The notes: a model not told the origin generated them from the sequence alone. Shown: positions 1,363-31,928, counted from the stretch's first letter. The stretch: 32,000 nucleotides of DNA from Geotalea uraniireducens Rf4 (GCF_000016745.1 NC_009483.1:900001-932000); one strand, 5' to 3'. Numbers and translations: made by a program.

Positions 1363-4300
1363 ATGAAAACAATACGCCTGATCCTCATGACCTGCCTAAC
1401 CGCCGTCACCCTGCTCGCCCCCCTTTCCGGCGCGGCCTTTGCCGCCTGCACCGACCCCGCCGGCCCCAGCGTGGACTGGACTAGCTGTAACAAGTCCGGT
1501 GCCGACCTGCACGGCCTGGACCTGACCAGCGCCATCCTGACCAGCGCCATCCTGACCAGCGCCAACCTGACCAACGCCAACCTGACCAACGCCAACCTGA
1601 ACGGCGCTAACCTGTACAACGCCGACTTGACCGGCGCCACCCTGACCGGCGCCATTTTCACTGCAAACAACCTGGACGTTGCGCAGTTGTACGGCGTCGT
1701 CGGCCTGACCGAAACCCAACTGCTCGCCTATGCCGCGAACAACAAGTATGTAGCCTTAAACTGCTACGGCACCGTGTGCGGTCCCAATCTGTACAAGGTT
1801 CGAATGAAAAATCTCAACCTGAGCGGCTTCAACCTGAGCGGCATGAATTTTTCCCATGCGTTTTTAGAGGAAAACTGCAACCTGAGCGGAGCCAACCTGA
1901 CTGGCGCCAAATTTTCAAACATTTGGGTGATGACCGGCGTCAACCTGAGCAATGCCCAAGGGGTTACCCCGGGAATGTTCGCCGACTTTGTTACAGCAAT
2001 GAATACCTATCACGGGTTCACATTCTCCGGCTTCAACCTCTCCGGCCTGAATGTGTCCGGCTTTGATTTTACGGGCGTGGACCTGAGCAATGTCAACCTG
2101 AGCAACGTGACCGGCCTGACCAGCGCCCAGTTGCGCAGCGCCTTCAGCATCCAGGGGATGAACCTGTCCGGGGTGAACCTGACCGGCTTTGATTTTTCCG
2201 GCCTGAACCTGACCAACGTCAACCTGAGCAATACCACCGGGCTCACCAGTGCCCAGTTGTTCAGCGCAACCAGCTTCCAGGGGGTAAACCTGTCCGGGGT
2301 CGATCTGTCCGGCTTTGATTTTTCGGGCAAGGACCTGACCAACGTCAACCTGAGCAACACCACCATCAGCAGCGCCCAGTTGCGTAGCGCCACCAGCATC
2401 CAGGGGGTGAACCTGTCCGGCCTGAATGTGTCCGGCTTTGATTTTACGGGCGTGGACCTGAGCAATGTCAACCTGAGCAACGTGACCGGCCTGACCAGCG
2501 CCCAGTTGCGCAGCGCCTCCAGCATCCAGGGGGTGAACCTGTCCGGGCTGAACCTGAGCGTCTTTGATTTTTCGGGCAAGGACCTGACCAACATCAACCT
2601 GAGCAACGTGACCGGACTGACCAGCGACCAGTTGCGCAGCGCCACCAGCATCCAGGGGGTGAACCTGACCGGGGTGAGCCTGACCGGCTTTGATTTTTCG
2701 GGCCTGAACCTGACCAACGTCAACCTGGGCAACACCAACATTAGCAGCGCCCAGTTGCTCAGCGCCTCCAGCATCCAGGGGGCCAACCTGTCCGGGCTGA
2801 ACCTGTCCGGGTTAGACCTGCACGGCCTGAACCTGACCGGCGCCACCTTCACCGGCGCCAACCTGGCCAATGCCAATCTGAGCAACGTGATCGGACTGAC
2901 CGATGCCCAGTTGCGCAGCGCGAGCAACATGCAGGGGGTGAACCTGTCCGGGGTGAACCTGACCGGTTTTGATTTTTCGGGGCTGAACCTGACCAACGTC
3001 AACCTGAGCGGCACGAACGTCACCCCCACCCAGTTGAGCCAAGCCACCAGTCTCCTGGGGGTCAACCTGAGCGGACTGACCCTGCCCAATTTCGATATGA
3101 GGAACCTGAACCTGACCGGGGTCAACCTGAGCAACACCAACCTGACCGGCGTGGCGAGTACCAACGCCAACACCATCCTGGCCGGGGTCAACCTGAGCGG
3201 CTCGAACATCACCAGCGCCCAGTTCAACGCCGCCTCCGGCAATCTCGCGGGGATCAACCTGTCCGGGTTGAACCTGGCCGGGTTCATTTTCTCGGGCAAG
3301 GACCTGACCGGGGCCAACCTGAGCAACGCGACGAACGTAGACAGCGCCCAGCTCACTGGCGCGGCCAGCCTCCAGGGGGCAAACCTGACCGGGTTGAGCT
3401 TTGCCGGCGGCACTCTTGCAGGCGCCAATCTGACCGGGATCAACCTGTCAAACGTCGACCTGACCAACGTCAACCTGACCGGCACGAACCTGACCAACGC
3501 CACCCTGACCAACGCCACTTTCACCGGCGCCACCCTGACCAGCGCCACCTTCACCGGCAGCACCCTGACCGTGGCCCAGTTGCTGGCCGCCTCGGCCGCC
3601 GGCCTGCAAGGGGTGAACCTGTCCGGGCTGAACCTGAGCGGCATCGACCTGAGCGGCAAAAACCTCTCCAACGCCGTCCTGACCGGGACGAACCTGACCA
3701 ACGCCACCCTGGCCACCGTCAACCTGACCGGCGCGAACCTGACAAACGCCACCCTGACCGGGGCGGCCTTTAACGGCGGCACCAACCTGACCGGCGCTAC
3801 CCTGACCAGCGCCACCCTGACCGGCGCAACCGGGTTGACCAGCGCCGTGCTGGCGGCCGCATCCACCGCCATGTCCGGCATCAACCTGAGCGGACAGAAT
3901 CTGGGCAGCATCGACCTGAGCGGCAAAAACCTGAGCAATGCCAATCTCGGCAATGCCGGCCTGACCAGCGCCAACCTGAACAACGCCAACCTGACCGGCG
4001 CCAATCTGAGCGGCGCGGACTTGACGCTAGCCACGCTGACCGGGGCCAACATGGCCAGCGCCATCCTGACCGGCGCGACCGGGCTGACCTATGCCCAGCT
4101 CGCCTCGGCCGCAAACCTGCACGGCATCAACCTGTCGAACAGGACCCTGGCCGACCTGCATGGCCTGGACCTGACCGGCGCCAGCCTGTTGAACGCCAAC
4201 CTGGCCAACGCCGATCTGAGCAATACCAACCTGACCAACGCCAACCTGACGGGCGCCATCCTGTCCGGCGCCACCCTGACCGGCGCCACCCTGGCCAATG

Positions 4301-4938
4301 CCATACTGACCGGCGTAACCGGGCTGAACGCCATCAACTTCAGCGCCGGGGCCCACGGCAGCATCAGCGGCACGGCGTTCCAGCAGGTGGCCCCCGGCGG
4401 CTCCACCACGGCGGTGACGGCGGTGCCCAACGCCGGGTATCACTTCATTGCCTGGGTCGATGCCGCCAACAACGTGCTCTCCACGGTTCTTACGCACTCC
4501 GTGTCCAACGTCACGGTCAGCAACACGCTCATCGCCCTGTTTGTCGCCAATGACAACACCGTCACCAGCATCATCCAAGACCCGGCCACGCCGGCTACCC
4601 TCTTTGCCGGGCTGGACGGGGCAGGGGTCTACAAGAGCACCAACAGCGGCGCAAACTGGAACGTCGCCTCCACCCAGCCGGCCAATCTGCGGGTCAAAGC
4701 GCTGGCCGCCAAGGATTCCAACAACCTGTACGCGGCGGGTTACGGGAGCGGGGTATTGAAGAGCACGGACAGCGGCGCTACCTGGACCGCCTGCGCTAAC
4801 ACCAATCTTACGAACCTGAATGTGAAATCACTGACCATGGATGCCGCCGGCAAGCTCTACGCCGGCACCGAGGCGGGGATTTTCGTCAGCACGGATGGCT
4901 GCGGGACGTGGACGGCACAGAGCGCGGGGCTGCCGTAA
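1363..4938 (+). CDS. Secreted giant pentapeptide-repeat protein with C-terminal InlB-B-repeat-like segment and three Asp-box (BNR) motifs
   Basis: RBS AAGGAG at 1349-1354, 8 nt before the ATG. Signal peptide MKTIRLILMTCLTAVTLLAPLSGAAFA. About 900 aa of A(N/D)LxG-type pentapeptide repeats. Segment ...PNAGYHFIAWVD...LIALF resembles a divergent InlB B-repeat. SxDxGxTW-like motifs at 4635-4658, 4762-4785 and 4888-4911. Confidence 0.9.
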   Translation: MKTIRLILMTCLTAVTLLAPLSGAAFAACTDPAGPSVDWTSCNKSGADLHGLDLTSAILTSAILTSANLTNANLTNANLNGANLYNADLTGATLTGAIFTANNLDVAQLYGVVGLTETQLLAYAANNKYVALNCYGTVCGPNLYKVRMKNLNLSGFNLSGMNFSHAFLEENCNLSGANLTGAKFSNIWVMTGVNLSNAQGVTPGMFADFVTAMNTYHGFTFSGFNLSGLNVSGFDFTGVDLSNVNLSNVTGLTSAQLRSAFSIQGMNLSGVNLTGFDFSGLNLTNVNLSNTTGLTSAQLFSATSFQGVNLSGVDLSGFDFSGKDLTNVNLSNTTISSAQLRSATSIQGVNLSGLNVSGFDFTGVDLSNVNLSNVTGLTSAQLRSASSIQGVNLSGLNLSVFDFSGKDLTNINLSNVTGLTSDQLRSATSIQGVNLTGVSLTGFDFSGLNLTNVNLGNTNISSAQLLSASSIQGANLSGLNLSGLDLHGLNLTGATFTGANLANANLSNVIGLTDAQLRSASNMQGVNLSGVNLTGFDFSGLNLTNVNLSGTNVTPTQLSQATSLLGVNLSGLTLPNFDMRNLNLTGVNLSNTNLTGVASTNANTILAGVNLSGSNITSAQFNAASGNLAGINLSGLNLAGFIFSGKDLTGANLSNATNVDSAQLTGAASLQGANLTGLSFAGGTLAGANLTGINLSNVDLTNVNLTGTNLTNATLTNATFTGATLTSATFTGSTLTVAQLLAASAAGLQGVNLSGLNLSGIDLSGKNLSNAVLTGTNLTNATLATVNLTGANLTNATLTGAAFNGGTNLTGATLTSATLTGATGLTSAVLAAASTAMSGINLSGQNLGSIDLSGKNLSNANLGNAGLTSANLNNANLTGANLSGADLTLATLTGANMASAILTGATGLTYAQLASAANLHGINLSNRTLADLHGLDLTGASLLNANLANADLSNTNLTNANLTGAILSGATLTGATLANAILTGVTGLNAINFSAGAHGSISGTAFQQVAPGGSTTAVTAVPNAGYHFIAWVDAANNVLSTVLTHSVSNVTVSNTLIALFVANDNTVTSIIQDPATPATLFAGLDGAGVYKSTNSGANWNVASTQPANLRVKALAAKDSNNLYAAGYGSGVLKSTDSGATWTACANTNLTNLNVKSLTMDAAGKLYAGTEAGIFVSTDGCGTWTAQSAGLP
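2029..3057 (+). repeat. In-frame tandem array of about 8 units of 123-126 nt (41-42 aa) inside the pentapeptide gene
   Basis: Unit consensus GVNLSGLNLSGFDFSG.DLTNVNLSNVTGLTSAQLRSA.SIQ repeats about 8 times. Positions 2041-2143 are 103/103 identical to 2416-2518, an offset of 375 nt or three units. Confidence 0.85.
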
Positions 4939-4945
4939 CTGCAAC

Positions 4946-5057
4946 GGCAAATCCCCCCTGGCCCCCCTTTCTTAAAGGGGGGTAAACTCTACCTTTATTA
5001 AGGTGGGGGAATGTAAAACCTCCCCCTTTGACAAAGGGGGATTGAGGGGGATTTGCC
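4946..5057. repeat. Composite G/C-run structured element: 12-bp outer stem enclosing three hairpins (cloverleaf-like topology)
   Basis: Outer stem ggcaaatccccc (4946-4957) pairs with gggggatttgcc (5046-5057). Inner hairpins are ccccccttt/aaagggggg (4962-4970/4974-4982), acctt/aaggt (4991-4995/5000-5004) and tcccccttt/aaaggggga (5021-5029/5033-5041). It lies between the stop at 4938 and the next start at 5116. Confidence 0.6.
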
Positions 5058-5115
5058 TTTCAACCTTCACCAACGACACCATCACATATCACCGCAATAA
5101 ATGGAGAACACCACC

Positions 5116-8100
5116 ATGAGGCAACTCGCACTCATAATCATAACCTGCTTGACGGTCCTGATGCCGTGCCAGGCCCGTGCCGCCACCCCCTACAACCAGT
5201 GGAACGGAACCGGCCCCATCTCTCCGGTTACGGGCGACCGGAGCATCGGCGCCCTGCTGGTGAGGAGCGACGGCATCCTGTTCAGCGGCAACGGCAGCGG
5301 CACGGTGTTCAGCTACGAAAGCAAGGCTCCTGATGCCGCCACCGGTGGCGCCAACGCCGTGCCCGGCACGTCGGCCACTTTGAGCGCCACTGTCAACGCC
5401 AATAACGCCGCCACCACGATCACGTTCCAGTACGGCACAACCACCGGGTACGGTAACAGCGCAACCGCGACGCAGTCGCCGCTTGCGGGCTCCACCGCAA
5501 CGGAGGTCACCGCGAGCATCAGCGGCCTGACCAACGGCGCGACCTATCATTACCGGGTGGCGGCCACCAGCAGCGCGGGCGCCGCCTACGGCGCGGACCA
5601 GGCCTTCACGGCCGGACAGGCCATGGCCGTGGTCACCCTGGGCAACCTGGCATTCACCTACAACGGCGCCCCCAAGTCCACCACGGTCACCACCAGCCCG
5701 TCCGGCCTGGCCGTGACCATAACGTACAACGGTTCCACGACCCCGCCGGCCAGCGGCGGCAGCTACACCGTGACGGCCACCGTCAACGACGCCAACTACC
5801 AGGGGAGCGCTACCGGCACCCTGGTCATCGCCAAGGCAAACGCCACGGTCACCCTGACCCCGGCCAGCCTGAGCGCCACTTACGACGGCGCCCCCAAGGC
5901 CGCGGCAGCGACCACCAGCCCGCCCGGCCTGGCGGCCGGCTTTACCTATGACGGCTCCGCCTCGGCCTCGGCCAGCGCCGGCAGTCACGCTGTGGTGGCC
6001 ACCATCAGCGACACCAACTACCAGGGCACAACCAGCGGCACCCTTGTCATCGCCAAGGCGAACCAGGCCATCACCTTTGCCACCTTGCCGGTCAAGACCT
6101 ACGGCGACGCCGACTTCGGAGCGGGCGCCACTGTCTCGTCCGGCCTGCCCCTGACCTACAGCAGCGACAACGAAGCGGTTGCCACCGTAGCCGCCGATGG
6201 CCAGATCCATATCGTCGCGGCAGGGGGCGCTACCATCACCGCCACCCAGGCCGGTGACGCCAACTACAACGCCGCATCGGCGCAAACACTGGCTCTCACG
6301 GTCAGTAAAGCCACCATCACCGTAACCGCCGACAACAAGAGCCGCGCCTACGGCGCTACCGATCCGGTCTTCACCGCCACCTACAGCGGCTTTGTCAAAG
6401 GAGAAGGGGCAACCGTTATCACCGGCACCTCAAGCTTCACCACCAGCGCCACCGCCGCCAGTCCGCAGGGGAGCTACAGTATCACCCCGGTTGTATCCGG
6501 CCTCACCGCCGCCAACTACACCTTTGCCGCCGCCAACGGCACCCTGGCGGTAGGACTGGTCAGCCAGACCATCACCTTCAACCCGCTGCCCGCTAAAACC
6601 TACGGCGACGCTACATTTACCCTTGCCGCCTCCGGCGGCATCTCCGGCAACAGCCTCACCTACAGCAGCAGCGATACCAGCGTAGCCGCGATCAGCGGCG
6701 CCACCGTCACCATCGTCGGCTCAGGAACAACCACCATCACCGCCGATCAAACCGGCACAACAGGAGCATACGCCACTGCCACCGCCCAGCAGAGTCTGAC
6801 GGTCAACAAAACAACCATCACCGTCACCGCCAACAGCGCAACCAGACAATACAACAGTGCTAACCCGGCGCTAACCGCCAGCTACAGCGGCTTTGTCAAT
6901 AATGAGGATGCCACGGTCATCAGCGGCACACCAACCGTAACCACCACCGCCACCCCGGCAAGCCCGGTGGGGAGCTATCCTGTCACCGTTGCCCTCGGTA
7001 CCCTGACAGCAGTCAATTACGACTTTACCTTTGTGAGTGGCACCCTCGGTGTCGGTCTGGCCAGCCAAGCCATCACCTTTGCGCCACCGGGCAGCAAAAC
7101 CTACGGTGACGCCACTTTTGAGTTGAATGCCTTCGGCGGCGCTTCCGGCAATCCGGTCACTTTCATCAGCAGCAACGAAGCGGTCGCCACGGTCAGCGGC
7201 GCTACCGTCATCATCATCGGCGCGGGAACCTCCACCATCACCGCCAGCCAGGCGGGCAACAGCAACTACGCCTCGGCCACCGCCCAGCAGACCCTGACGG
7301 TAGGCAAGGCACCGCTCACCGTAACTGCTCAGAATGCCAGTAGAGCGTACGGCGAAGCAAACCCGGCCTTCACCGCTGCCTTCAGCGGCTTCGTCAACAA
7401 CGAGGACTCCACGGTTCTGCAAGGCGCACCGAGCTTCACCACCAGCGCCGACGCCGCCAGCGCACCGGGGAACTATCCGATCACAGTAGCGATAGGGAAC
7501 CTGTTCTCCAATAACTACAGCTTCAGCTATGTCAACGGTACGCTGGTGATCGGCAAGGCAACCCCGGTCATCATCTGGAACACCCCGGCAGCCATCACCG
7601 CCGGAACCGCGCTCTCCATCAGCCAACTGAACGCCAGCGCCGGCGTTGCGGGCAGCTTTGCCTACACCCCCGTCGCCGGAACAATATTGAGCGCCGGAAG
7701 TCACACCCTCTCGGTCAGTTTCACACCGAACGACGGCAACTATAGCAGCGCCAGCGCTTCGGTGAGCATTACGGTCAACGCCGCGCCGGTCATCTCCGAT
7801 ACCACTGCTCCGACGATGGACGCTTTCACCATCCCGGTGAGCGCACACAGCCTGACCATCCCTATCACCAGCTTCACCGCCAGCGACGCCAACGGCGTCA
7901 TCGGTTACCTGGTGAGTGAAAATGCCAGCCAGCCTACTACAGATGCGGTCTGGAGCGCCACTGCGCCTGTTGAATACACCTTCAGCTCGCAAGGCAGCAA
8001 AACGCTCTACGCCTTTGCAAAAGACGCGGCGGGCAATGTCTCGGTGCCGCTCTCCGCCAGCGTCACCATCACGCTGCCTGACACCACCGTACCGACTGTC

Positions 8101-9435
8101 ACCAACTTCACCATTCCAGATACTGCTGCCAGTCTCATTGTACCGGTAACCAACTTTGACGGGGGCGACGACACTGCTATCACCACCTGGTTGCTGAGTG
8201 AGACGGCAACAGCTATGGCGGGCGACAGCAGGTGGAGTGCCACAAAACCGTCTGACTACACCTTTGGCGGTCAAGGGACTAAAACCCTTTACGCCTTTGC
8301 TAAGGATGTAGCGGGTAACGTCTCGGCACCGCTGTCCGCCACAGTTGTTATCACGCTTCTCGACACGACCGCGCCAACTGTTGACGCCGTCACCATTCCG
8401 GCCACCGCATCGAGCCTGACCGTTGCTCTCAATGCCATCAGCGCAACCGACACCAGCGGCGTCACCGGCTATTTCATCAGCGAATCGGCCACCCCGCCCG
8501 CCGCCGATGCCACCGGCTGGAGCGCAACCGCTCCAACCAGCTACACCTTTGCTTCACAAGGTAACAAAACACTCTACATCTTTGCCAAAGATGCGGCCGG
8601 CAACGTATCGCTTCCGGTCACCGCTTCCGTCACCATAACGCTCTCCGATACCACTGCGCCGAGCGTCACCAGCTTCACCATCCCGGCCACCTCCGCCAGC
8701 CTCACCGTCGCAGTCACCAGCTTCACCGCCAGTGACGACACCGCCGTCACCGGCTACCTGCTCAGTGAAACTGCCACCGCCACGGCAGGCAGCGGCAACT
8801 GGACGGTTACGTCGACCAGTTCATACACCTTTGCCACCGCCGGAGCCAAAACGCTCTACGCCTTTGCCAAAGACGCGGCGGGCAATATATCCGCAGCAGC
8901 CACGGCAGCGGTAGTCATCACGCTGCCCGACACCACCGCGCCGGTGGTATCAGGCTTCACCGTAACAGGCAGCGCAACCAGCCTGACCGTGGCCGTAACA
9001 AACTTCTCGGCCAACGATGACACCGCCGTTACCGGCTATATCATCAGCGAAAGCGCCGTAGCGCCTGCTGCCGCGGCAAGCGGCTGGACATCCACGCCGC
9101 CGGCCTCATACACCTTTGCCACCGGAGGCAGCAAAACGCTCTACGCCTACGCCAAAGACGCGGCGGGCAACGTCTCGACATCTGCCGCAGCAACCGTCAC
9201 CGTCTCCACCGTTCTGCGCAACGGCAACGGCGGCAGCGGCACCGACCCAACCATAGCCGATGCCTTGAAAGCATTGCAGGCGTACCTCGGCCTGGTGACG
9301 TTAAGCAGCGACGACCAGATCCGCTACGACGTCGCGCCGCTCTCCAGCAGCGGCGTACCTGAAGGGAACGGTGTGGTTGATTTTTCTGATGCCATAATAA
9401 TCTTGAGGAGAAGTATCGGAATCGGCAGTTGGTAG
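5116..9435 (+). CDS. Giant exported surface protein: Fn3-like domain, MBG(YDG)-type and Ig-like repeats, 5 x 94-aa repeats, C-terminal dockerin-like module
   Basis: ATG 5116 follows GGAGA at 5103-5107; ATG 5101 is an alternative start. Signal peptide MRQLALIIITCLTVLMPCQARA. TITFQYG...TYHYRV Fn3-like domain. Repeated motifs ...TYDGAPK... and ITVTADNKSRAYG...NYTF..ANGTL (MBG-like) alternate with KTYGDA.F...LTYSSS...VATV..ATVTIVG.GTTTITA.QAG..NY (Ig-like). C-terminus ADALKALQAYLGL...YDVAPL...NGVVDFSDAIIILRRSIGI is dockerin-like. Confidence 0.9.
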   Translation: MRQLALIIITCLTVLMPCQARAATPYNQWNGTGPISPVTGDRSIGALLVRSDGILFSGNGSGTVFSYESKAPDAATGGANAVPGTSATLSATVNANNAATTITFQYGTTTGYGNSATATQSPLAGSTATEVTASISGLTNGATYHYRVAATSSAGAAYGADQAFTAGQAMAVVTLGNLAFTYNGAPKSTTVTTSPSGLAVTITYNGSTTPPASGGSYTVTATVNDANYQGSATGTLVIAKANATVTLTPASLSATYDGAPKAAAATTSPPGLAAGFTYDGSASASASAGSHAVVATISDTNYQGTTSGTLVIAKANQAITFATLPVKTYGDADFGAGATVSSGLPLTYSSDNEAVATVAADGQIHIVAAGGATITATQAGDANYNAASAQTLALTVSKATITVTADNKSRAYGATDPVFTATYSGFVKGEGATVITGTSSFTTSATAASPQGSYSITPVVSGLTAANYTFAAANGTLAVGLVSQTITFNPLPAKTYGDATFTLAASGGISGNSLTYSSSDTSVAAISGATVTIVGSGTTTITADQTGTTGAYATATAQQSLTVNKTTITVTANSATRQYNSANPALTASYSGFVNNEDATVISGTPTVTTTATPASPVGSYPVTVALGTLTAVNYDFTFVSGTLGVGLASQAITFAPPGSKTYGDATFELNAFGGASGNPVTFISSNEAVATVSGATVIIIGAGTSTITASQAGNSNYASATAQQTLTVGKAPLTVTAQNASRAYGEANPAFTAAFSGFVNNEDSTVLQGAPSFTTSADAASAPGNYPITVAIGNLFSNNYSFSYVNGTLVIGKATPVIIWNTPAAITAGTALSISQLNASAGVAGSFAYTPVAGTILSAGSHTLSVSFTPNDGNYSSASASVSITVNAAPVISDTTAPTMDAFTIPVSAHSLTIPITSFTASDANGVIGYLVSENASQPTTDAVWSATAPVEYTFSSQGSKTLYAFAKDAAGNVSVPLSASVTITLPDTTVPTVTNFTIPDTAASLIVPVTNFDGGDDTAITTWLLSETATAMAGDSRWSATKPSDYTFGGQGTKTLYAFAKDVAGNVSAPLSATVVITLLDTTAPTVDAVTIPATASSLTVALNAISATDTSGVTGYFISESATPPAADATGWSATAPTSYTFASQGNKTLYIFAKDAAGNVSLPVTASVTITLSDTTAPSVTSFTIPATSASLTVAVTSFTASDDTAVTGYLLSETATATAGSGNWTVTSTSSYTFATAGAKTLYAFAKDAAGNISAAATAAVVITLPDTTAPVVSGFTVTGSATSLTVAVTNFSANDDTAVTGYIISESAVAPAAAASGWTSTPPASYTFATGGSKTLYAYAKDAAGNVSTSAAATVTVSTVLRNGNGGSGTDPTIADALKALQAYLGLVTLSSDDQIRYDVAPLSSSGVPEGNGVVDFSDAIIILRRSIGIGSW
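7798..9207 (+). repeat. Five in-frame tandem repeats of 282-285 nt (94-95 aa) within the 5116-9435 gene
   Basis: Units start with DTT(A/V)P codons at 7798, 8080, 8362, 8647 and 8929. Each contains ...FT(I/V)P...SLTV.VT.F.A.DD.AVTGY..SE.A......W......YTF...G.KTLYAFAKDAAGNVS... Confidence 0.85.
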
Positions 9436-9450
9436 GAATGCAATCTTAAC

Positions 9451-9532
9451 GTAAGGGCGCAATGCTTGCGCCCCTGCTGCAATAACCGGCATTGTTGCTA
9501 TTGCCATCAGGGCGCATGCAATGCGCCCTTAC
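9451..9532. repeat. Inverted pair of related palindromic hairpins (REP/BIME-like) between the dockerin-protein gene and the lipoprotein gene
   Basis: Hairpin 1 is GGGCGCA (9455-9461) / TGCGCCC (9467-9473). Hairpin 2 is AGGGCGCAT (9509-9517) / ATGCGCCCT (9521-9529). Flanks gtaagggcgca... (9451) and ...tgcgcccttac (9532) are reverse complements, so the two copies are in inverted orientation. Confidence 0.6.
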
Positions 9533-9555
9533 AAAACCATCCGGGAGAACAAACG

Positions 9556-10068
9556 ATGACAACAAATATCTCAAAATACCTGTTGCTGACCTTGACCCTG
9601 CTGACCCTCGCCGCCTGCGGCGGGGGAGGTGGGGGCGGCACAACAGACACGACCAAAACCACCGCCACTGTCAAAATAGCCCTGAGCGGCACGTTGCCGG
9701 CCGGCACCGCTATTGCCGGGGCCGCCTTAACCTTGACGCTGCCGGACAACGTTATTCCGGAACTGGTCAATGGAGCCGTGGCCGGCAGCGTTGTCACGCC
9801 ATCCGGTGTCTTTGCCGGAGGGGCGCTGGTTCCTGTGGTTTACAAGGAGGCCACTGCATCCTCCCCCGGCATGGTGGTGATTGCCCTTGCCAGCGCAGCC
9901 ACAACCGGTGTAGCCGAAACAGGTGAGGTAGCCACCGTCACCTTGCGCCTGACCAACAGCGCCGCACCGACCGCCGGCAGTTTTACGCTGGATCAGAAGG
10001 TGACCGATACCTCGGGCAAAGTCGTCAGCGGTTTGAGTGCGATCGTGAGTGGGGTGACGCTGCAGTAA
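9556..10068 (+). CDS. Lipoprotein (170 aa) with cohesin-like beta-sandwich domain
   Basis: RBS GGGAGA at 9543-9548. Signal peptide with lipobox LTLAAC followed by a Gly run. The remainder (VKIALSG.LPAG...LTLTLP....GEVATVTLRLTNSAAPTAGSFTL...GVTLQ) has the spacing and character of a cohesin module. The ORF-track start at 9466 lies inside the REP element and is rejected. Confidence 0.75.
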   Translation: MTTNISKYLLLTLTLLTLAACGGGGGGGTTDTTKTTATVKIALSGTLPAGTAIAGAALTLTLPDNVIPELVNGAVAGSVVTPSGVFAGGALVPVVYKEATASSPGMVVIALASAATTGVAETGEVATVTLRLTNSAAPTAGSFTLDQKVTDTSGKVVSGLSAIVSGVTLQ

Positions 10069-10200: not shown

Positions 10201-10641
10201 ATGAAAGGGGACACGTTGCGATGTGGTAAAGCAGCCTGTCCCTTTATTACTTTCCAGTTCTCCCAAGAGCGGATGACATACCTTGAGCAGAGCGGCACCG
10301 TCAACTATCGCTCGAAAGATGGCCACACGACGAAGAGCTTCAGCGCACTCGACTGGCTGGCACTGATAATCAGCCACATTCCCCGGCATGGTGAGCAGAT
10401 GGAGCGCTATTACGGATATTACAGCATCGCAGCCAGAGGCAAGCGCAGGAAGCTTGGGCTGGTTGATGTCGAGACAGCTGAAATCGCCGGGCAGGAAGCA
10501 GATTCGGCATATCGCAAGAAGTGCCGTGCCAACTGGGCGAGGCTGATCCGGAAGATTTACGAGATTGATCCGCTGACCTGCCCCAACTGCGGCGGCACGA
10601 TGCGGGTGCTGGCGTTTATCGAAGAAGCGGAAATCCCGTAA
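10201..10641 (+). pseudogene. Remnant (C-terminal ~146 aa) of an IS91-family (Y2/HUH rolling-circle) transposase
   Basis: ...FSQERMTYLE.SGTVNYRSKDG....FSALDWLALIISHIPRHGEQMERYYGYYS...ANWARLIRKIYEIDPLTCPNCGGTMRVLAFIE matches the conserved C-terminal part of IS91-type transposases. The N-terminal catalytic ~250 aa are absent, with a stop immediately upstream at 10198-10200. There is no RBS, and the extreme C-terminus also looks cut. Confidence 0.6.
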
Positions 10642-10658: not shown

Positions 10659-10687
10659 TTGACACTACCCGGCGACGGGTGTATTTT
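10659..10687 (+). promoter_or_regulatory. Candidate sigma70-type promoter of the STAND regulator gene
   Basis: TTGACA (10659-10664), a 17-nt spacer, then TATTTT (10682-10687), about 100 nt upstream of ATG 10785. Confidence 0.4.
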
Positions 10688-10784
10688 CCGTCCAGTCAAA
10701 AAAGCAAATTCCTATCCCTTTATCCCACATCCAGGCCCTCTGGAGAATCCGTTCAGGTTTAATGGCGAGAACAGAATCAACCCC

Positions 10785-13700
10785 ATGAATAAACGCTTGA
10801 TTACGTCAATAGCAAAAATTTCCGCCCCGAAGGTTTCGGGGACGGTCGAGCGGGAACGGCTTTTCCGGCTGCTCGACCATGGGCGGGAGAAGCCCGTGGT
10901 ATGGATTGCGGCGCCGGCGGGCTCGGGCAAGACCACCCTTGTTTCCGGATGGCTCGACAACCGCCGGATACCCTCCATCTGGTATCAAATCGATAGCGGT
11001 GATGCCGATCCTGCCACGTTTTTCATGTATTTCGGCTTGGCGGCGCAAAACGCGGCGCCGAAAAAGAAAAAAAAGCTCCCCGTCCTGACGCCGGAATACT
11101 TGATGGGGATCCCCGTGTTCAGCCGCCGCTTTTTTGAGGATGTTTTCAGCAGGCTCCCCATACCAGCCGTCATCGTGTTCGACAACTACCAGGACGCGCC
11201 CGCCGATTCACCGCTTCATGAAATCCTGCGGTGCGGCATCGATGCCGCGCCGGCAGGGATCACCTTCGTTGTCCTGAGCAGATGCGATTCACCCCCGCAA
11301 CTGTCGCGTATCCGTATCACCGATCGGCTCCATTTTCTGGGGTGGTTCGATCTTCGCTTTTCCGTTGAAGAGTCGAAGACCATGGCAATAAGTCATGGTT
11401 GCGCAGATCTTGACGATGATGTACTGCTGCGCTTGCATGCAAAAGCCAACGGCTGGGCCGCCGGGCTGGCGCTTCTGCTCAGATCGCGGGAACTGGGGCC
11501 TGTCCGTGGCCCATCGTTGAAGACCCCCGCTGTGCTCTTCGATTATTTTGCCGAGGAAATCTTTCGGTTAACCGATGGCGCCACCCGCGATTTCCTGTTG
11601 AAAACCTCCCTTTTCCCCTCCACGACTGTCTCCATGGCCGAGCATATTTCCGGAAACAACGATGCCAGCGCCATCCTGGACCGCCTGAACAGAGAACATT
11701 ATTTTATCGAAAGCCACGTATCCGATGATCCGGTCTATCAGTACCACCCCCTCTTCAGGGAGTTTCTCCTGAACAGGGCGAAGAGCCTGTTCGCGCCCGA
11801 TGCATTGGCCGATATGCAGCGAGATGCCGCGCGGCTTCTTGAACAGGCCGGACAGATAGAGGATGCGGCACGGCTTTACAGTGATGCCGGAGACAGTGCC
11901 GGTCTTGCCCGGTTAGTGACCCGTCATGCTCGGGAACTCTTGCTGCAAGGGAGAAACAAGAGCATTCGGGAATGGATGGCAAGCCTGCCCGAGAAAACGA
12001 TGAATGACGATCCATGGCTGCTCTACTGGAGCGGGATGTGCTCGTTTCCGATGGATCTGCCCGGAACAAGACAATATCTCGAACAAGCCTTGGCGTTGTT
12101 CAGGATGAATGAAGATCTGCCGGGCATCTATCTCTCCTGGGCAGGCATCGTGGATAGCTATGCCTTCGGTGACGAGTGGAAGAGTCTTGACAACTGCATT
12201 ACGGTCTTCGACGACCTGACAAGCTCCTATCCGTCCTTCCCATCACTGGAAATCGAGCTCGTCGCCTCATCCAGGATGCTGTTATCCCTCACCTTGCGAA
12301 AAACGAATCAGCCGGAACGGGTTGAACGTTGGCTTGCTCGCGTTTCCGCGCTGCTGCAGGAAAATCCCTCTTTCGATATCCAGATGGACATCTTTTCCTG
12401 CATGAGTCTCTATTATCTCTGGAAAGGGGAGTATGACAAAAATGCCCTGCTGCTTGAACGGGCCGTGGCTGAGGTCAGTCATCGAAAAGCATCTTCCTTT
12501 GCGGTCATTCGCATTAAATTGATGAGCGGTATTCATTACTGGATAACGGCAGATTATCAGGCCGCTTTGCAGGCACTCTCCGAAGGGCTTGATGTTTCAG
12601 CCAAAAGCGGCGTCCATCTGTATGACTCCCTGTTATGGAGTTTCAAGGCTGCGACCGAAATGGCGGCTGGCGAAATGGAGAATGCGGAGAACTCCATGAA
12701 GCATCAACTGAAGTCGCTTCTCGGCATGGAGAATGCGCTGAACAGTTTCTGGTATTACATCAACTCCGCCTGGCATGCGCTCCTTACCGGTAACCCGTCC
12801 CGTGCTGCCGAACATATGGAGACCGCCTTTGCCAGGACGGAAAGCATGGGGACCCCATACTACCAGGCATTGTGGCACGTCGCCATGGCGCAGGTGGCCT
12901 TTCTGCAGGGGCGTGCCGGTGAGGCGAGAACCCTTGTCCGGACGGCGCACCGCATCAGCCTGACGATGAAAAGCCTGGTTATGGAGTGGTACTCGCTTAT
13001 GATCGACGCCTGGCTTCTTTTGCAGGAAGGGGAGGAAACGGAGGGGCTTCTATCGCTTCGCCGCGGTCTGTCGCTGGGGAGGAAACACGGCTATGTTCAT
13101 CTTGAATTCTACCAGCCGACCGTCATGCGCTTTCTTTTTGCAAAGGCGCTGGGGGAGAGGATAGAGCAGGAGTATGTGAAGGGGCTTATCAGGAAACTGG
13201 GACTGACGCCTCCCTATCCTCTTGAGGAATGGCCCTATCCTATAAAGATCCACACCCTCGGCCGGTTCGAGATCCTCAAGGACGATGAACCGCTTGTATT
13301 TTCCGGGAAAGTCCCGAAAAAGCCGTTGGAACTGCTCAAGGCATTAATTGCCTTCGGCGGCAGGGAAGTGTCCAGGGAACGGGTGACCGACGCCCTCTGG
13401 CCCGATGCTGACGGCGACCGGGCCAATAATGCCTTCAAATTTTCGCTGCACCAACTCCGGCTGCTTCTGAACAAGGATACCGCGGTAACGCTGCATAATG
13501 GTCTTGTGGCCTTTGACCCCCGTTATTGCCGGATCGACGCGGTGGAGTTCATGCGTCTGTCCGGAGAGGTTATCGCCCTGAGCCGGAAAACGGACCACGA
13601 CAGCCCCGAATCCGAAGCCCGAAACATCGGCGATCTTGCCCGACAGGCCATGGAACTTTATGGCGGCGATTTCCTCCCAAATGATGTGGAACTCCCCTGG

Positions 13701-13787
13701 ACTGCGCCGGTACGGCATAAGCTCCGCGAAAGGATGCAGCGGATGCTTGATGTTTCAGGGCATCATACCGGAAACCCGGAGCGGTAA
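10785..13787 (+). CDS. MalT-type STAND ATPase regulator with C-terminal SARP-like winged-helix (OmpR/PhoB type) plus BTAD domain
   Basis: N-terminus ISAPKVSGTVERERLFRLLD...VVWIAAPAGSGKTTLVSGW...WYQIDSGDADPATFF resembles the MalT N-terminus with a Walker A motif. A long helical, TPR-like middle follows. C-terminus IKIHTLGRFEILKDDEPL...KKPLELLKALIAFGGREVSRERVTDALWPDADGDRANNAFKFSLHQLRLLL......AMELYGGDFLPND...W...RHKLRE resembles SARP DNA-binding plus BTAD. Start chosen at the first ATG after the promoter-like element. Confidence 0.8.
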   Translation: MNKRLITSIAKISAPKVSGTVERERLFRLLDHGREKPVVWIAAPAGSGKTTLVSGWLDNRRIPSIWYQIDSGDADPATFFMYFGLAAQNAAPKKKKKLPVLTPEYLMGIPVFSRRFFEDVFSRLPIPAVIVFDNYQDAPADSPLHEILRCGIDAAPAGITFVVLSRCDSPPQLSRIRITDRLHFLGWFDLRFSVEESKTMAISHGCADLDDDVLLRLHAKANGWAAGLALLLRSRELGPVRGPSLKTPAVLFDYFAEEIFRLTDGATRDFLLKTSLFPSTTVSMAEHISGNNDASAILDRLNREHYFIESHVSDDPVYQYHPLFREFLLNRAKSLFAPDALADMQRDAARLLEQAGQIEDAARLYSDAGDSAGLARLVTRHARELLLQGRNKSIREWMASLPEKTMNDDPWLLYWSGMCSFPMDLPGTRQYLEQALALFRMNEDLPGIYLSWAGIVDSYAFGDEWKSLDNCITVFDDLTSSYPSFPSLEIELVASSRMLLSLTLRKTNQPERVERWLARVSALLQENPSFDIQMDIFSCMSLYYLWKGEYDKNALLLERAVAEVSHRKASSFAVIRIKLMSGIHYWITADYQAALQALSEGLDVSAKSGVHLYDSLLWSFKAATEMAAGEMENAENSMKHQLKSLLGMENALNSFWYYINSAWHALLTGNPSRAAEHMETAFARTESMGTPYYQALWHVAMAQVAFLQGRAGEARTLVRTAHRISLTMKSLVMEWYSLMIDAWLLLQEGEETEGLLSLRRGLSLGRKHGYVHLEFYQPTVMRFLFAKALGERIEQEYVKGLIRKLGLTPPYPLEEWPYPIKIHTLGRFEILKDDEPLVFSGKVPKKPLELLKALIAFGGREVSRERVTDALWPDADGDRANNAFKFSLHQLRLLLNKDTAVTLHNGLVAFDPRYCRIDAVEFMRLSGEVIALSRKTDHDSPESEARNIGDLARQAMELYGGDFLPNDVELPWTAPVRHKLRERMQRMLDVSGHHTGNPER

Positions 13788-13902: not shown

Positions 13903-16900
13903 ATGAAAAAAAATCAGAAGAGAGTTTTCAGAAGATTGCAAAAGTTTTCGACCGGACAGCCCGCATATTTGCGGCTGCTGGTCTGGCCGATCATTGCGCT
14001 GACGCTTGTTTTCGGACAGGCGTTTATTGTATCACCGGCAATGGCCTTGGGGGGCAGTTATACCCCGGCCGTCAGCGCCGGCAACGTCAGCGCGGGCAGC
14101 GCCACCCTGACGTTGAAATTTACCGGGGATTCCTCCACGCTGACCGGGAATTTCACCCTTCTGGCGGGGAACGGCGCCAGTTGCGGCAGCAGCGCTCAAG
14201 TCATTGCAGGAACGGACAGCGCGGACAAAGCAATTGGCGTCGCCGGCAGCGTCGTACTTCGCTCAGGCTCCGTGCCGAATATGAGCGTCGCTACCGATTA
14301 CCCGTACACGGTGGGCAACCTCAGCGCCGCCACCTCCTATACCGCCTGTTTCACCTCCAGCCCAGGTTCTACGCCTGCTTCGGCCAGTTTTAGCACAACA
14401 GCCGCCACCCCCCAGGTAGGCGCCTTCATGGGCACGGCCAGCGACACCGCTTTTACAGGCATTGCTCTCCCTTCCGTCATGGCCATTGCCCCGGACGGCG
14501 CCCCTTACGTGGCCTTCGGGTATTTGACTTCGGGTGGTGTAGCACACAAAGCCACGGTGAAGCGCTTTAATAGCCAGACCAAAGCGTGGGAACCGGTCGG
14601 CGCCGCGGAATTCACCGTCGATGCGGCCAATAGTATCTCTCTGGCCTTTGCCCCGAACGGCGCCGCTTACCTGGCGTCTTCCGACGATAACACCACCAAC
14701 GGAACCAAGGTGATGAGCTTTAATGGCGCGACCAGTACGTGGGAAGCGGTCGGCGCTACGCCCGTCTCTGCCGGCAGCACCGGTTTTAACTCACTGGCCT
14801 TTGCCCCGGATGGCACCCCTTACGTGGCGCTCGTGGAATTTGCAAACGGCGGCCAAGCCAGTGGCTATGTCAAGGTAAAGCGCCTTAACGGTTCGACCTG
14901 GGAAGACGTCGGCGCCCTGCCCGCCGACTACGCCACATACAGCTCCCTGGCCTTTACCCCCAACGGCGGCCTTTACCTGGCGTACGTGAAGACTGCACAC
15001 TCAGGCGCGGACTGGGGCACCGCCACGGTGAAGTTCCTTGCGAACCCGGCGGATCCCGGCGCTACCTGGGCAGATATCAACAATGATCCATCCAGTTCCT
15101 ATATCTACGGCGTTAGCGGCCTCTCCCTGGCTATCGCCCCGAACGGCACACCCCATGTAGCTTTTATGGATGCCGACACACGCTATCCCATAGTGATGCG
15201 CTACCTGAACGGCGCCTGGATCAAGGTCTGGAACGGCAGCGCCAATATAACAGCCGGCAGGGCGGCCGGCATGGGCAACCTGGTCATTGCCCCGGACGGC
15301 ACGCCATATCTGGCGACCGCGGATGAAAACACAGATCGCTCACAAACGCCGCTATTCGGCTTTAACGGCACGGACTGGATTCCTTTCGGCAGCAACTCTA
15401 CCATCTATAATTGGGGCCAGACTGCTCAACCGACCGTGGCCATTGCTCCGAACGGCATACCGTATGTGTTGATTAATGATATTAACACTTTCAACCCCAT
15501 GATAATGAAGGCGAACACCGACCCCATTCTCGCCGGCGTCACTACCGGCGCGGCGAGCAACATCACCACCACCGGCGCCACCGTGGCCGGGACGGTAAAC
15601 ACCACCGACGGCGGAACCACCACGGTTAGCTTTGAATATGGCGCTGACACCAGGTACGGCAGTCACACTACCCCCGTTACCGGCCAGTCGGCCGGCGCGT
15701 CAGCTTCCGCCTCCATCACGGGGCTGTTCTGCGGCGCCACCTACCACTACCGGATCAAGGGAACAAGCAGCCGCGGCCCCGCCTACGGCAGCGACAATAC
15801 CTTTGCCACCTTGGACTGCCAGCCAGGCCCGGCGCTGACCACTCCGAGCGCCAGCAATATAACCGTGGGGGGGGGCGCCACCCTGCAGTTTCAGGCAAGC
15901 GCCGTCAGCACCGGGTATTACACCGTGATGGCGGGGGCCGATGTCACCTGCGGCACCGCCTTGCAAATCAGGGGAGGCAAGGACAGCAACGGCAACACCG
16001 CAGCCATTTCCGGCTCCATGGCGCTGCAAGCCAACACTCCCGCCAGCATACAGTTAAACAGCCTGACCAACGCCGCCTACACCGTCTGCTTTACCGCCGG
16101 CACCAGCAGCACGCTGGCAACCGTTGCCTCGTTCAACCTGCTGACCCGCCCGGATTTCAGCTGGCAGCCGCTCGGTACAGCCGGAGCTTTCAGCGGCGAT
16201 GCGTCATACATCAAACTCGCCATTTCACCAACGGACAACACCCCCTACGTGGTGTTTCAGAATAATGTTCCCGGTGACCCGGATAATGGCAAGGCTGTGG
16301 TGAAGAGCTACAACGGCACATCCTGGAGCACGGTCGGTTCCGGCGGTTTCTCCACCGGAGACGCCTCTTTCATCTCTATGGCCATTGACAGTAACGGTAA
16401 ACCTTATGTGGCGTATCAGGACAGTGGCAACAGCGGCAAAGCCACGGTGAAGTCTTACAATAATGGCACTTGGGGCGAAATCGGGGTTACCGGCGGATTT
16501 TCCTCAGGTTTGGCCCAATACATCTCCATGACCTTTGCGCCGATGGGCAACGTTCCCTATGTGGCATACGCCGACGGCAGCGGCAGCAATAATGGCTCAA
16601 TCACGATGCAAGAGAACACAACCGGCAGTTGGAGCGTAGATGGGACCGGGACCGCCATCTCCGCCGCGAACGCCTCCAGCATCTCCCTGGCCTCTGATTC
16701 ATATTCTCAACAATATGTCGCGTATATTGACGGAAGCGACCTTAACAATAAACAGGTGAAGGTCCGGTACTATTATAATGATCCTGCTTTTCCTCTTTGG
16801 GATAACTACCCGGCGGTCTCAAGCAATTCACTCACCGATCTCTCCAATCTCTCCCTGGCGGTTGCGTCAGACTGCACACTCTACGTGGCATATCTGGATG

Positions 16901-19472: not shown

Positions 19473-20630
19473 ATGAAGATATTTGCAACCATAGCATCGT
19501 CGCTGCTGTTAATGCTTGTCATCACCGCCTGTGGCGGCGGTTCCAGTCCCACTCCCGTCGCCGCCAACACCACCGTCTCCGGCATCGCCTCCAAGGGCCC
19601 GATCGTCAACGGCGTAGTCAAGATATATTCGGTCATAGACGGCGCCAAAAGCACACTGCTCGCCCAGACCACCACCGACGCCAACGGCAACTACACCGCC
19701 AATCTCGGCAGCTACGTGGGTCCGATCATAGTCGAGGCGAGCGGTTCCTACCTGGACGAGGCCACCGGTACAACCAAGACCATTCCAGCGGATTCTCCCA
19801 TTCACGCCGCGCTCCCCTTGGCGCAGGGCGCGGTCAACCTGCCGGTAACGGCCCTCACCGAACTTGCCTACCTCAAGACCGACGCTGACCTGACCGCATC
19901 GGCAATCAGCGCAGCCAACACCCTGGTTTCCGATCTCTTCAAGGTAGACATCATCGCCACCTCGCCGGTAGTACCAACAGCCGCTGTCCTTGCCACCGCC
20001 ACCCAGGCCCAGAAAGACTACACCCTGGCCCTGGCAACCGTATCCCAACTGGCCAGTACCGCAACCGGTACCAGCGACACCGACAAACTGAACAATGCCC
20101 TGACGACAATAGGGCAGGGCATATCACCCACCGGCATGACCACCGCCACTGTTAGCGCCATCCAGAGCGCCCTGACTACCTTCGTCAGCAACCCCAACAA
20201 CCAGACCGGCGTCAGCGACACCGCAACTACCAGCCTGATAAACGTCGGCACCCTTACAAAGAGATATAAACTGAGTCTCCAGGGGACCTTCACCCCAGGC
20301 AGCGTTACCGGCCTTCAGTTCGATCTGACGCTTCCGGCGGGAGTCACCCTCAACGTCAACAGTTCCACCTCGGCCGTCCTCTCCAGCAGCCTGACCCTTT
20401 CGGGTGATGTGCATTCCGGTGCCCTGCTGGCGGCCAATTACTCGTCCGGCAGCCTGACCGTCGGCATTATCACCACAAACGGGTTCAGCACCGGCGAGGT
20501 AGCCACGTTGACCTGCAATGTCCCTGCTGGAGCGAGCGCGCCCAGCGCCTCCTCATTCTCCGTCGCCAACATCAGGAGCATCGACAAGAACGGCGCCACG
20601 GTGTCTGGAACCACGATCACCATCAAGTAA
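19473..20630 (+). CDS. Lipoprotein (385 aa): N-terminal beta-rich domain, Ala/Thr-rich helical middle, cohesin-like C-terminal domain
   Basis: RBS GAGGAG at 19462-19467. Signal peptide with lipobox VITAC followed by GGGSS. C-terminus LQFDLTLPAGVTL....GSLTVGIITTNGFSTGEVATLTCNVPAGASAPSASSFSV...D.NGATVSG..ITIK parallels the C-terminus of the 9556 lipoprotein. Confidence 0.8.
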   Translation: MKIFATIASSLLLMLVITACGGGSSPTPVAANTTVSGIASKGPIVNGVVKIYSVIDGAKSTLLAQTTTDANGNYTANLGSYVGPIIVEASGSYLDEATGTTKTIPADSPIHAALPLAQGAVNLPVTALTELAYLKTDADLTASAISAANTLVSDLFKVDIIATSPVVPTAAVLATATQAQKDYTLALATVSQLASTATGTSDTDKLNNALTTIGQGISPTGMTTATVSAIQSALTTFVSNPNNQTGVSDTATTSLINVGTLTKRYKLSLQGTFTPGSVTGLQFDLTLPAGVTLNVNSSTSAVLSSSLTLSGDVHSGALLAANYSSGSLTVGIITTNGFSTGEVATLTCNVPAGASAPSASSFSVANIRSIDKNGATVSGTTITIK

Positions 20631-27908: not shown

Positions 27909-28491
27909 CGCCTTCTTCCTCCCTGGCCGACAGTGGGCGACTGCTGGTATATCTCCTGAGCATCAACTCGGTCTGGTATTCCATTTCTCGCATGTCGGCC
28001 CGCACCCATTTTTCCTTCACCAGCGACATCAGGTAGGCTACGACGCTACAGGCCAGACCGACGACAACGGTGGTAAAGGCGGTCACCATACTTCCGGCCA
28101 TCTTGGGCATATCCCCCTGCGCCAGCGAAGAGAGGGATATCCCCATCGGAATCAGGGTTCCCATCAAACCAAGAGCTGGACCGACCCGGATCACGAAGCG
28201 GATCTTGTCCAGGGATTTGACCAGGGCCAGCTCGGCCGTTTGCAGGAGACGCTCCATGGCGATATCCAGATTGGACTTCTCAGGTGCGTCCGCCAGTGCT
28301 GCGGTCAAGCGTGCCCGGTAGCGTTCCAGCGGGGTGGATACCCCCTGTCGCCGTTCCAGCCACTCCCGCAGAAATCCGCCAATGAAGATGGTGACCCATC
28401 CAACCAAAAGCACCAGCCCGGCAACCACCGGAAACAGCAGAACCGACGAAATCAGATACAGGACGGTTTCAAGACCAGCCAATATGTTCAT
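27895..28491 (-). CDS. MotA/TolQ/ExbB proton-channel family protein
   Basis: 198 aa with three TM segments and signature VGPALGLMGTLIPMG...AFTTVVVGLACSVVAY. ATGA start/stop overlap with the upstream gene. Confidence 0.85.
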   Translation of the reverse strand: MNILAGLETVLYLISSVLLFPVVAGLVLLVGWVTIFIGGFLREWLERRQGVSTPLERYRARLTAALADAPEKSNLDIAMERLLQTAELALVKSLDKIRFVIRVGPALGLMGTLIPMGISLSSLAQGDMPKMAGSMVTAFTTVVVGLACSVVAYLMSLVKEKWVRADMREMEYQTELMLRRYTSSRPLSAREEEGDEIS

Positions 28492-31425: not shown

Positions 31426-31449
31426 GATTTTCTCCCGCGAGTATTTCGG

Positions 31450-31600: not shown

Positions 31601-31614
31601 TTTGAAAAAGGCAC

Positions 31615-31650: not shown

Positions 31651-31717
31651 TTTTCGTATTCAAAGTCTGATAATGGTTTCACTCTCCCTTTACCACGGGG
31701 AATTGTTGAGTGCTAAG

Positions 31718-31888: not shown

Positions 31889-31928
31889 TATTCAGTTTTT
31901 GTTGATATTTACTAAATATTGCATGATC

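Follow-up and report, generated by a model that had tools for sequence, protein, structure and literature searches.

Conserved pairing of a dockerin-like tail with a cohesin-like lipoprotein in Geotalea uraniireducens: a candidate two-gene tethering cassette for giant secreted proteins

Anchors of Firmicutes cellulosomes include the SLH-anchored SdbA, OlpB and Orf2p and the protein OlpC of Clostridium thermocellum, together with the sortase-anchored ScaE and the autonomous ScaG (PDB 4n2o and 4wkz) of Ruminococcus flavefaciens. Non-cellulosomal cohesin-dockerin examples are found in the toxin/glycosidase complexes of C. perfringens (PDB 2vo8, 2jh2 and 2w1n) and in modules of Archaeoglobus fulgidus, and Peer et al. 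reportedly described in 2009 cohesins as well as dockerins of the non-cellulosomal kind across bacteria and archaea (as cited in PMC9012536). Here, two gene pairs are described within a 32,000-nucleotide (nt) stretch of DNA, referred to as the window, from Geotalea (formerly Geobacter) uraniireducens, a diderm of the Geobacteraceae (Thermodesulfobacteriota). In each pair, a gene encoding a giant protein (the cargo) with a dockerin-like C-terminal tail is followed by a gene encoding a lipoprotein with a cohesin-like module, in which pair 1 corresponds to 5116-9435 plus 9556-10068, and pair 2 to 13903-19317 plus 19473-20630. The reading that we favour, by a modest measure, is that pair 1 is a two-gene tethering cassette encoding a very divergent cohesin-dockerin pair, whose lipid-anchored socket would hold a Sec-exported cargo on the cell envelope.

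The logic predicted here is the same as that of the anchoring scaffoldins, in which a cell-bound cohesin captures the dockerin of a secreted protein. ScaE, ScaG and OlpC are single-cohesin anchors like lipoprotein 1, whose fold matches include 4n2o, 4wkz and 4dh2, and small scaffoldins resemble the two-module relatives of this lipoprotein. However, whereas the Firmicutes anchors are fixed to a Gram-positive wall by SLH domains or sortase, the present one is predicted to be lipidated at its N-terminus and to sit in a diderm envelope; SLH domains and LPXTG motifs were not found, and attachment is predicted to occur via the lipobox cysteine. Moreover, the cargo is not enzymatic, no glycoside hydrolase or carbohydrate-binding module (CBM) having been found among the cargo domains, and the genetic pairing is 1:1, in contrast to the many dockerins per scaffoldin of Firmicutes. 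Since enzymes, CBM and SLH or sortase anchoring are all lacking, the system is not a cellulosome. The non-cellulosomal pairs are closer, as they also combine a non-cellulolytic cargo, which bears a dockerin-fold module at its C-terminus, with a cohesin-fold partner from a nearby gene, and have neither glycoside hydrolases nor a large scaffoldin, and the non-cellulosomal cohesin of C. perfringens is the best structural match of lipoprotein 1. They differ in that their cohesin lies within a multidomain secreted protein, whereas the cohesin-like module described here is a stand-alone lipoprotein, and in that the present arrangement is a strict two-gene cassette with swappable cargo and a degenerate first Ca2+ loop. 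In addition, the two modules of pair 1 have diverged beyond the reach of Pfam, and are therefore annotated as 'hypothetical'.

The preliminary description of this locus had proposed a non-cellulosomal use of the interaction in a Gram-negative organism. Such use is not new, since cohesin/dockerin 'adhesins' have already been proposed in anaerobic methanotrophic (ANME) archaea and their Gram-negative sulfate-reducing partners (PMC10553843, PMC9012536). The sulfate-reducing examples belong, like the present one, to the Thermodesulfobacteriota, and these 'adhesins' of syntrophic consortia were invoked without a defined anchor (PMC10553843, PMC9012536). Dockerins are also annotated in many non-cellulolytic environmental bacteria, Geobacter included, where they were read as cellulose-related or left unexplained; Geobacter fn3/dockerin genes, for instance, were highly expressed in Fe(III)-reducing soil and interpreted as cellulose-related, with the receptor unnamed (PMC6199725), whereas a candidate receptor family is identified here. 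In a full-text literature search, neither a cohesin-like receptor of lipoprotein type nor such a two-gene cassette was found described, and a lipoprotein-anchored single-cohesin cassette appears to be undescribed so far. Another non-cellulosomal pair would by itself be unsurprising; what stands out is that the candidate receptor family is lipid-anchored, that the cassette genetics is clean and that two diverged pairs lie in one window. The locus offers a concrete candidate receptor, a small lipoprotein family missed by current hidden Markov model (HMM) libraries and paired with the tail in dozens of loci. What the 'orphan' dockerins of environmental diderms bind has long been a loose end, and the locus opens this question to direct testing.

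The features of pair 1 are the following (aa, amino acids; RBS, ribosome-binding site):

5116-9435, plus strand: cargo gene 1, encoding a 1439-aa secreted giant repeat protein (open reading frame 5101-9435 and its translation)
5116-5181, plus strand: Sec-type signal peptide MRQLALIIITCLTVLMPCQARA, predicted cleavage after ARA with A as the next residue (read from the translation)
9211-9432, plus strand: dockerin-like tail 1, 74 aa, the C-terminal end of cargo 1
9436-9555, plus strand: intergenic spacer of 120 nt, with a hairpin and the lipoprotein RBS GGGAG at about 9543
9556-10068, plus strand: lipoprotein 1, 170 aa (translation; RBS GGGAG 8 nt upstream)
9616-9618, plus strand: codon of Cys21, lipobox LAAC of lipoprotein 1 (translation)
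Residues 22-35 of lipoprotein 1, plus strand: Gly7/Thr-rich linker (translation)
9661-10065, plus strand: residues 36-170 of lipoprotein 1, cohesin-like nine-strand beta-sandwich (AlphaFold2 model)

The strongest evidence for a putative functional link between tail and lipoprotein is their synteny. Cassette loci were gathered from both sides, 8 from species-representative genomes via the lipoprotein, scanned with a profile built from 17 closer sequences, and 30 from metagenomes via the tail, and the removal of duplicates left 32 non-redundant cargo-lipoprotein pairs. An open reading frame ending in the tail was located directly upstream of the lipoprotein gene, on the same strand, in 8/8 of the genome loci, and the lipoprotein was located directly downstream of the tail in 25/30 of the metagenome loci; in Geomonas limicola, a 5796-aa giant with the tail is followed by the lipoprotein only 24 nt downstream. 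The association extended to more canonical tails, as two of three sampled loci of this kind carried a lipoprotein-family gene downstream. Of 40 tail matches, 38 had the tail at the very end of the protein, and in the remaining two it fell 2 and 7 residues short of the stop. The cargo domains, in turn, varied by locus, and included NHL propellers with fn3, Listeria-Bacteroides (Flg_new/InlB) repeats with Laminin_G_3, MBG arrays and Big_7/Big_13 arrays. Across the 32 pairs, pairwise identities of the tails correlated with those of their partner lipoproteins (Spearman 0.47), while the 200 aa upstream of the tail correlated with neither tail nor lipoprotein (Spearman 0.02 and 0.06); part of the former correlation could come from linkage alone. 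Even so, this pattern shows that tail and lipoprotein move together as a single module, which recombination sets behind different cargoes. The two-gene cassette of the preliminary description is in this way borne out by an adjacency conserved in 32 non-redundant loci with variable cargo.

The genes may also be linked at the translational level. In 8/32 pairs (L002, L004, L008, L014, L018, L026, L027 and L033), an in-frame ATG of the lipoprotein gene shares one base with the stop codon of the cargo (TGATG), which suggests translational coupling, although the choice of the lipoprotein start codon is uncertain. A different arrangement was observed at locus L030, where a cargo-tail gene, a lipoprotein gene and a second cargo-tail gene succeed each other at 1958-7674. 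No second lipoprotein was found in the 545 nt past the second cargo-tail gene, and a single receptor may serve two cargo genes in this case.

Cargo gene 1 starts at ATG 5116, preceded by GGAG at a 9-nt spacing, and encodes two MBG_3 domains, three MBG_2 domains, a Big_2-like region, five OmpL47-type immunoglobulin (Ig)-like repeats and the C-terminal tail (Pfam E 2.5e-55 for MBG_2 and 3.7e-48 for MBG_3; NCBIfam E 9.6e-16 for the OmpL47-type domain, in 5 stretches). It was in the segment ADALKALQAYLGL...YDVAPL...NGVVDFSDAIIILRRSIGI of this 1439-aa protein, at 9238-9432, that a dockerin-like end had been noticed in the preliminary description, and both coordinates and sequence were confirmed by translation. 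In tail 1, a degenerate first loop (NGGSGTDPTIAD) precedes helix 1 (DALKALQAYLG), from which a linker helix leads to the second loop (YDVAPL-insert-GNGVVDFSD); helix 3 (AIIILRRSIG) comes next, and the tail ends in GIGSW-stop. Pfam gave the dockerin label no support, as Dockerin_1 (PF00404, gathering cut-off 22.9 bits) had no match in the full protein or in the segments 9190-9432 and 9211-9432, even at E<=10, and matched 0/12 of the closest relatives of the tail; an NCBIfam scan of the isolated tail returned no match either. The dockerin-like identity was instead supported by homology to the Dockerin_1-positive tail of pair 2 and by the fold matches of an AlphaFold2 model. The features of pair 2 are the following:

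13903-19317, plus strand: cargo gene 2, encoding a giant protein of ~1804 aa with a canonical dockerin end (translation)
19132-19314, plus strand: tail 2, GDINGDGKVDISDALLAL...GDVAPLVNDKPSSDGVIDIADAMLILEKAVGMLTW, Dockerin_1 28.4 bits, E 1.9e-6, scanned alone
19473-20630, plus strand: lipoprotein 2, 385 aa, lipobox ITAC (translation)
20265-20624, plus strand: cohesin-like module of lipoprotein 2, C-terminal ~120 aa, of the lipoprotein-1 family

Tail 1 was 42% identical to tail 2 over 69 aa (BLASTP, E 4e-14), and the tail-1 family HMM matched tail 2 with an E of 2e-10. A tail profile search retrieved 86 proteins, which form a gradient between the tail-1 type and canonical DxNxDG types and include some with a precomputed PF00404 assignment, and Dockerin_1 was matched by 23/84 aligned members of this superfamily, with a best E of 5e-9. 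When the tail profile was searched against PDB sequences, dockerins ranked first, with E of only 0.2-1.2. The AlphaFold2 model of tail 1, built from the superfamily alignment, had a predicted local distance difference test (pLDDT) of 92.8 and helices at 15-25, 33-39 and 58-68. In a Foldseek search of PDB, dockerins accounted for 12/14 top matches of this model (template modelling (TM) score 0.56-0.78, root-mean-square deviation (rmsd) 1.5-3.4 A), the best being 2ccl_B (TM 0.78), 4uyq_B, 5m2o_B and 1ohz_B (rmsd 1.5 A), all of them dockerins within solved cohesin-dockerin complexes, for which rmsd ranged over 1.5-2.6 A. Tail 1 is, judging from these homologies, a derived dockerin homologue, and its model has the compact three-helix dockerin fold.

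Compared with the widespread DVAPL-type dockerin tails of environmental bacteria, which match PF00404, are exemplified by tail 2 and include those of the Geobacter fn3/dockerin genes mentioned above, tail 1 represents a derived subfamily. Both have DALxAL and DVAPL in common, as well as the G-x-x-D-x-x-D loop, the ILR+ helix and a W at the end, but in tail 1 the first DxNxDG loop is gone and PF00404 is not matched any more. A dockerin typically consists of a segment duplicated in tandem, in which an EF-hand-like Ca2+ loop (D-x-N/D-x-D-G-x-x-D-x-x-D) leads into a helix. The first Ca2+ loop of tail 1, N-G-G-S-G-T-D-P-T-I-A-D, has plausible ligands at positions 1 and 12 only, as seen in the alignment, while D40 and G-N-G-x-x-D57-x-x-D60 are kept in the second; plausible Ca2+ ligands would remain in the second loop only. 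In the family alignment, 25/74 positions were invariant across 13 relatives, with helix 3 and the C-terminus (ILRRSIGIGSW) almost invariant. Other C-terminal signals were considered for cargo 1 and rejected. A sortase- or exosortase-like sorting signal was discarded because the tail ends in ...RRSIGIGSW, without a hydrophobic helix, and a type IX or type I secretion signal was ruled out by the N-terminal Sec signal and the dockerin fold of the tail.

The gene that follows cargo gene 1 encodes, as had been proposed, a 170-aa lipoprotein containing GEVATVTLRLTNSAAPTAGSFTL, which was confirmed by translation and by its lipobox; it is 100% identical to a G. uraniireducens entry named 'hypothetical protein'. 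Its N-terminus reads MTTNISKYLLLTLTLLTLAAC, followed by GGGGGGG and TTDTTKTT, so that the lipobox gives way to a flexible linker and then to ~135 residues of beta structure. The AlphaFold2 model, obtained from a 53-sequence alignment, contained nine strands with pLDDT >96 over residues 35-170. Cohesins filled the top 12 places of this model in a Foldseek search of 350,542 PDB chains, with probabilities of 0.92-1.00, led by the C. perfringens non-cellulosomal cohesin 2vo8 and the R. flavefaciens autonomous ScaG cohesin 4n2o. The cohesin-like beta-sandwich of the preliminary description is upheld by this model and its structural matches, and not by HMM. Lipoprotein 1 would accordingly be described, from its model, as having a cohesin-like fold and as a remote cohesin homologue at best.

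Under the tethering reading, cargo 1 would be exported through Sec as an Ig-like/MBG array carrying a 74-aa three-helix dockerin-fold plug at its extreme C-terminus. The lipoprotein would be acylated at its lipobox cysteine and sorted to the outer membrane, from which the flexible Gly/Thr linker would present a single cohesin-fold socket. This socket would bind the cargo tail non-covalently, possibly in a Ca2+-dependent manner, and the cargo would be held on the envelope, most plausibly at the cell surface, where it might act as an adhesin-like or matrix protein. Tail and lipoprotein would in this way constitute a portable unit, fused to or placed beside unrelated cargoes in Geobacterales and Desulfuromonadales.

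Several observations weigh against this reading. Membership of lipoprotein 1 in the cohesin family was not established at the sequence level, given that Pfam Cohesin (PF00963, gathering cut-off 24.1 bits) produced only a sub-threshold match of 18.3 bits (E 0.0028), aligned over profile positions 15-130, i.e., 116/139. Weak Cohesin matches were found in just 9/53 and 5/143 relatives, with a best E of 0.0005, the lipoprotein-family profile found no cohesin among PDB sequences, and hhalign against three C. thermocellum type-I cohesins, checked against PDB, returned a probability of 0.6%, a weak negative owing to the narrow 3-sequence template. The Foldseek scores were modest (E 0.014-0.09, TM score on the target 0.35-0.54), and the cohesin likeness could be convergence on a common beta-sandwich. 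In tail 1, the DxNxDG ligands are absent from the first Ca2+ loop and 9-10 residues are inserted after DVAPL in the second. Furthermore, five tail-bearing genes had no adjacent lipoprotein (L021, L025, L036, L037 and L041), and among the exceptions at the 30 metagenome loci the lipoprotein was absent from 4 kb of downstream sequence at L021 and L025, whereas three others had only 0.3-0.9 kb of sequence 3' of the tail; under the docking model, such orphan tails would use a receptor encoded elsewhere. Finally, the present evidence fits a lipoprotein facing the surface and one facing the periplasm alike, and provides no account of a route by which the 1439-aa cargo would pass this membrane's outer counterpart. 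The surface-anchoring pair of the preliminary description, which had counted the lack of significant cohesin or dockerin HMM matches as evidence against itself, therefore stands in part: the matches are indeed lacking for pair 1, while the module identities and the conserved adjacency with variable cargo argue for the model.

These weaknesses lend themselves to a different view, in which the tail would be a real dockerin-type module with some other receptor, such as another cohesin-like protein, an envelope polysaccharide or the tail itself, and co-regulation of the lipoprotein would have another cause, its cohesin likeness being that of a generic beta-sandwich. The lipoprotein fails every sequence-level cohesin test, its TM scores reach just 0.35-0.54, and orphan tails do exist, all of which this view accommodates. 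However, it leaves aside the reciprocal adjacency (8/8 and 25/30) maintained through cargo shuffling, the correlated divergence of tail and lipoprotein in which the neighbouring cargo sequence takes no part, the parallel divergence of the pair-2 modules, and the occupation by cohesins of the first 12 places among 350,542 PDB chains, and we judge it improbable. To a similar degree, we doubt that the lipoprotein is a helper dedicated to export, folding or assembly, pilotin- or chaperone-like, that would recognise the tail transiently during passage of the giant cargo across or out of the envelope, with the cargo finally released, deposited in the matrix or bound to some other receptor. A tight adjacency, including the TGATG overlap in 8/32 pairs, would suit an accessory factor equally well, the tail sits at the extreme C-terminus as a recognition tag would, and the cargo route across the outer membrane is unexplained; nevertheless, both partners take the folds of a known stable binding pair, the two-module relatives look like scaffolds rather than chaperones, and long Gly/Thr linkers, like the one that follows the lipid anchor here, are typical of tethers.

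The side of the membrane on which the pair would meet raises a further alternative, namely that an inward-facing lipoprotein, in the outer or the inner membrane, tethers the giant protein in the periplasm with no surface display. According to the E. coli Lol rule, lipoproteins with Gly at +2 are placed by default in the inner leaflet of the outer membrane, and Gly occupies this position in lipoprotein 1; in addition, no secretion system gene was found in the window. Even so, long Ig-like/MBG arrays, NHL propellers and InlB repeats, as present in the cargoes, typify adhesins that work outside the cell, and cargoes of up to 5796 aa with such architectures would be hard to fit in the periplasm. 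Surface-exposed lipoproteins, such as OmcB, are moreover known in Geobacter, and periplasmic retention seems to us still less probable than the two preceding alternatives. Least credible of all would be a coincidental adjacency, or a pair of unrelated hypothetical genes whose low-complexity Ala/Gly/Thr-rich sequence mimics domains. Both proteins are compositionally biased and Pfam is significant for neither pair-1 module, but confident AlphaFold2 models and deep conserved families contradict this explanation, which is effectively refuted by the reciprocal synteny in 32 non-redundant loci.

Returning to the tethering cassette, its lipoprotein belongs to a large family. An exhaustive profile search, counted as cluster representatives at 50% identity, yielded 1310 clusters at E<=1e-3 and 163 at E<=1e-30, the best 150 of the 1310 being mostly 160-185 aa long, and a lipobox-like motif was present in 202/233 sampled members. 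In several members (P0177, P0178, P0179, P0197, P0207 and P0309), one lipobox is followed by a tandem of two cohesin-like modules, and these two-module lipoproteins seem to resemble mini-scaffoldins; others add an InlB-repeat, PASTA or CarboxypepD_reg domain, and one (P0002) is an in-genome paralogue with 87% identity. The source names in the family were hypothetical protein, 'lipoprotein', repeat protein and, in one case, PASTA domain-containing protein, and none of the named members was called 'cohesin'. It is conceivable, though we hold this wider proposal with less confidence than the reading of pair 1 itself, that at least 1310 clusters of ~170-aa 'hypothetical' lipoproteins constitute a large unrecognised family of lipid-anchored cohesin receptors, which, together with DVAPL-type dockerin tails, would provide Geobacterales and Desulfuromonadales with a plug-and-display system for interchangeable giant adhesin-like proteins on the diderm outer membrane. 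If true, receptors would be supplied for the 'orphan' dockerins of metal-reducing and syntrophic bacteria, with possible importance for how cells attach to minerals, electrodes or partner cells. If the binding is real, it would also exemplify the non-covalent tethering of very large secreted proteins to a lipid anchor in diderms, and the cohesin-dockerin system would gain both an anchoring mode and a sequence subfamily that are new to it.

Pair 2, located 4 kb downstream of pair 1 and with 155 nt between its genes, provides an internal comparison. The C-terminus of cargo 2 reads GDINGDGKVDISDALLALQMAVGL...GDVAPLVNDKPSSDGVIDIADAMLILEKAVGMLTW. Lipoprotein 2 has no Pfam match, but it matched the lipoprotein-1 family profile (E 6.7e-19, positions 38-164) and was 33% identical to lipoprotein 1 over 99 aa (BLASTP), with an extra N-terminal region ahead of the cohesin-like module. 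Both pair-2 modules diverged from those of pair 1 in parallel, and the two pairs may be orthogonal in specificity; provided that the binding is confirmed, they would represent a natural orthogonal pair for surface display in electroactive bacteria.

The 120-nt spacer between the pair-1 genes contains a long imperfect hairpin at 9451-9532, an inverted repeat with 34-nt arms, each of which forms its own GC hairpin (RNA minimum free energy -52.2 kcal/mol, z -4.67). No T-tract terminator was found in 9436-9555, and the hairpin had neither a second copy within the window nor an Rfam family match. At the orthologous Pelobacteraceae locus L001, the spacer has ~46 nt, too short for a hairpin of this type. 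The element may act in transcript processing or stability, or it may be a REP-like (repetitive extragenic palindromic) insertion.

Other genes surround the cassettes. Just 5' of cargo gene 1, at 1363-4938, lies a gene for a 1191-aa secreted pentapeptide-repeat protein with 22 Pfam stretches, an InlB B-repeat and a BNR/sortilin-like end, and without a dockerin-like tail. The spacer between this gene and cargo gene 1 (4955-5045) harbors two CCCCCTTT...AAAGGGGG hairpins, one of which scores as a terminator-like site on the minus strand. Directly 3' of lipoprotein gene 1, at 10201-10641, there is a C-terminal remnant of an IS91-type (Y2_Tnp) transposase, whose presence at the cassette border hints at past mobility or rearrangement. 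Between the two cassettes, 10659-13787 encodes a candidate regulator of both, a 1042-aa MalT-like STAND NTPase that also contains TPR repeats and a winged-helix domain of OmpR type. Farther along the window, on the minus strand, two tandem cobalamin riboswitch aptamers were identified at 31437-31611 and 31706-31897 (68.5 and 109.9 bits), upstream of genes for a TonB-dependent receptor (29197-31425), a DUF2162 transporter (28488-29183) and CobN (23612-27583).

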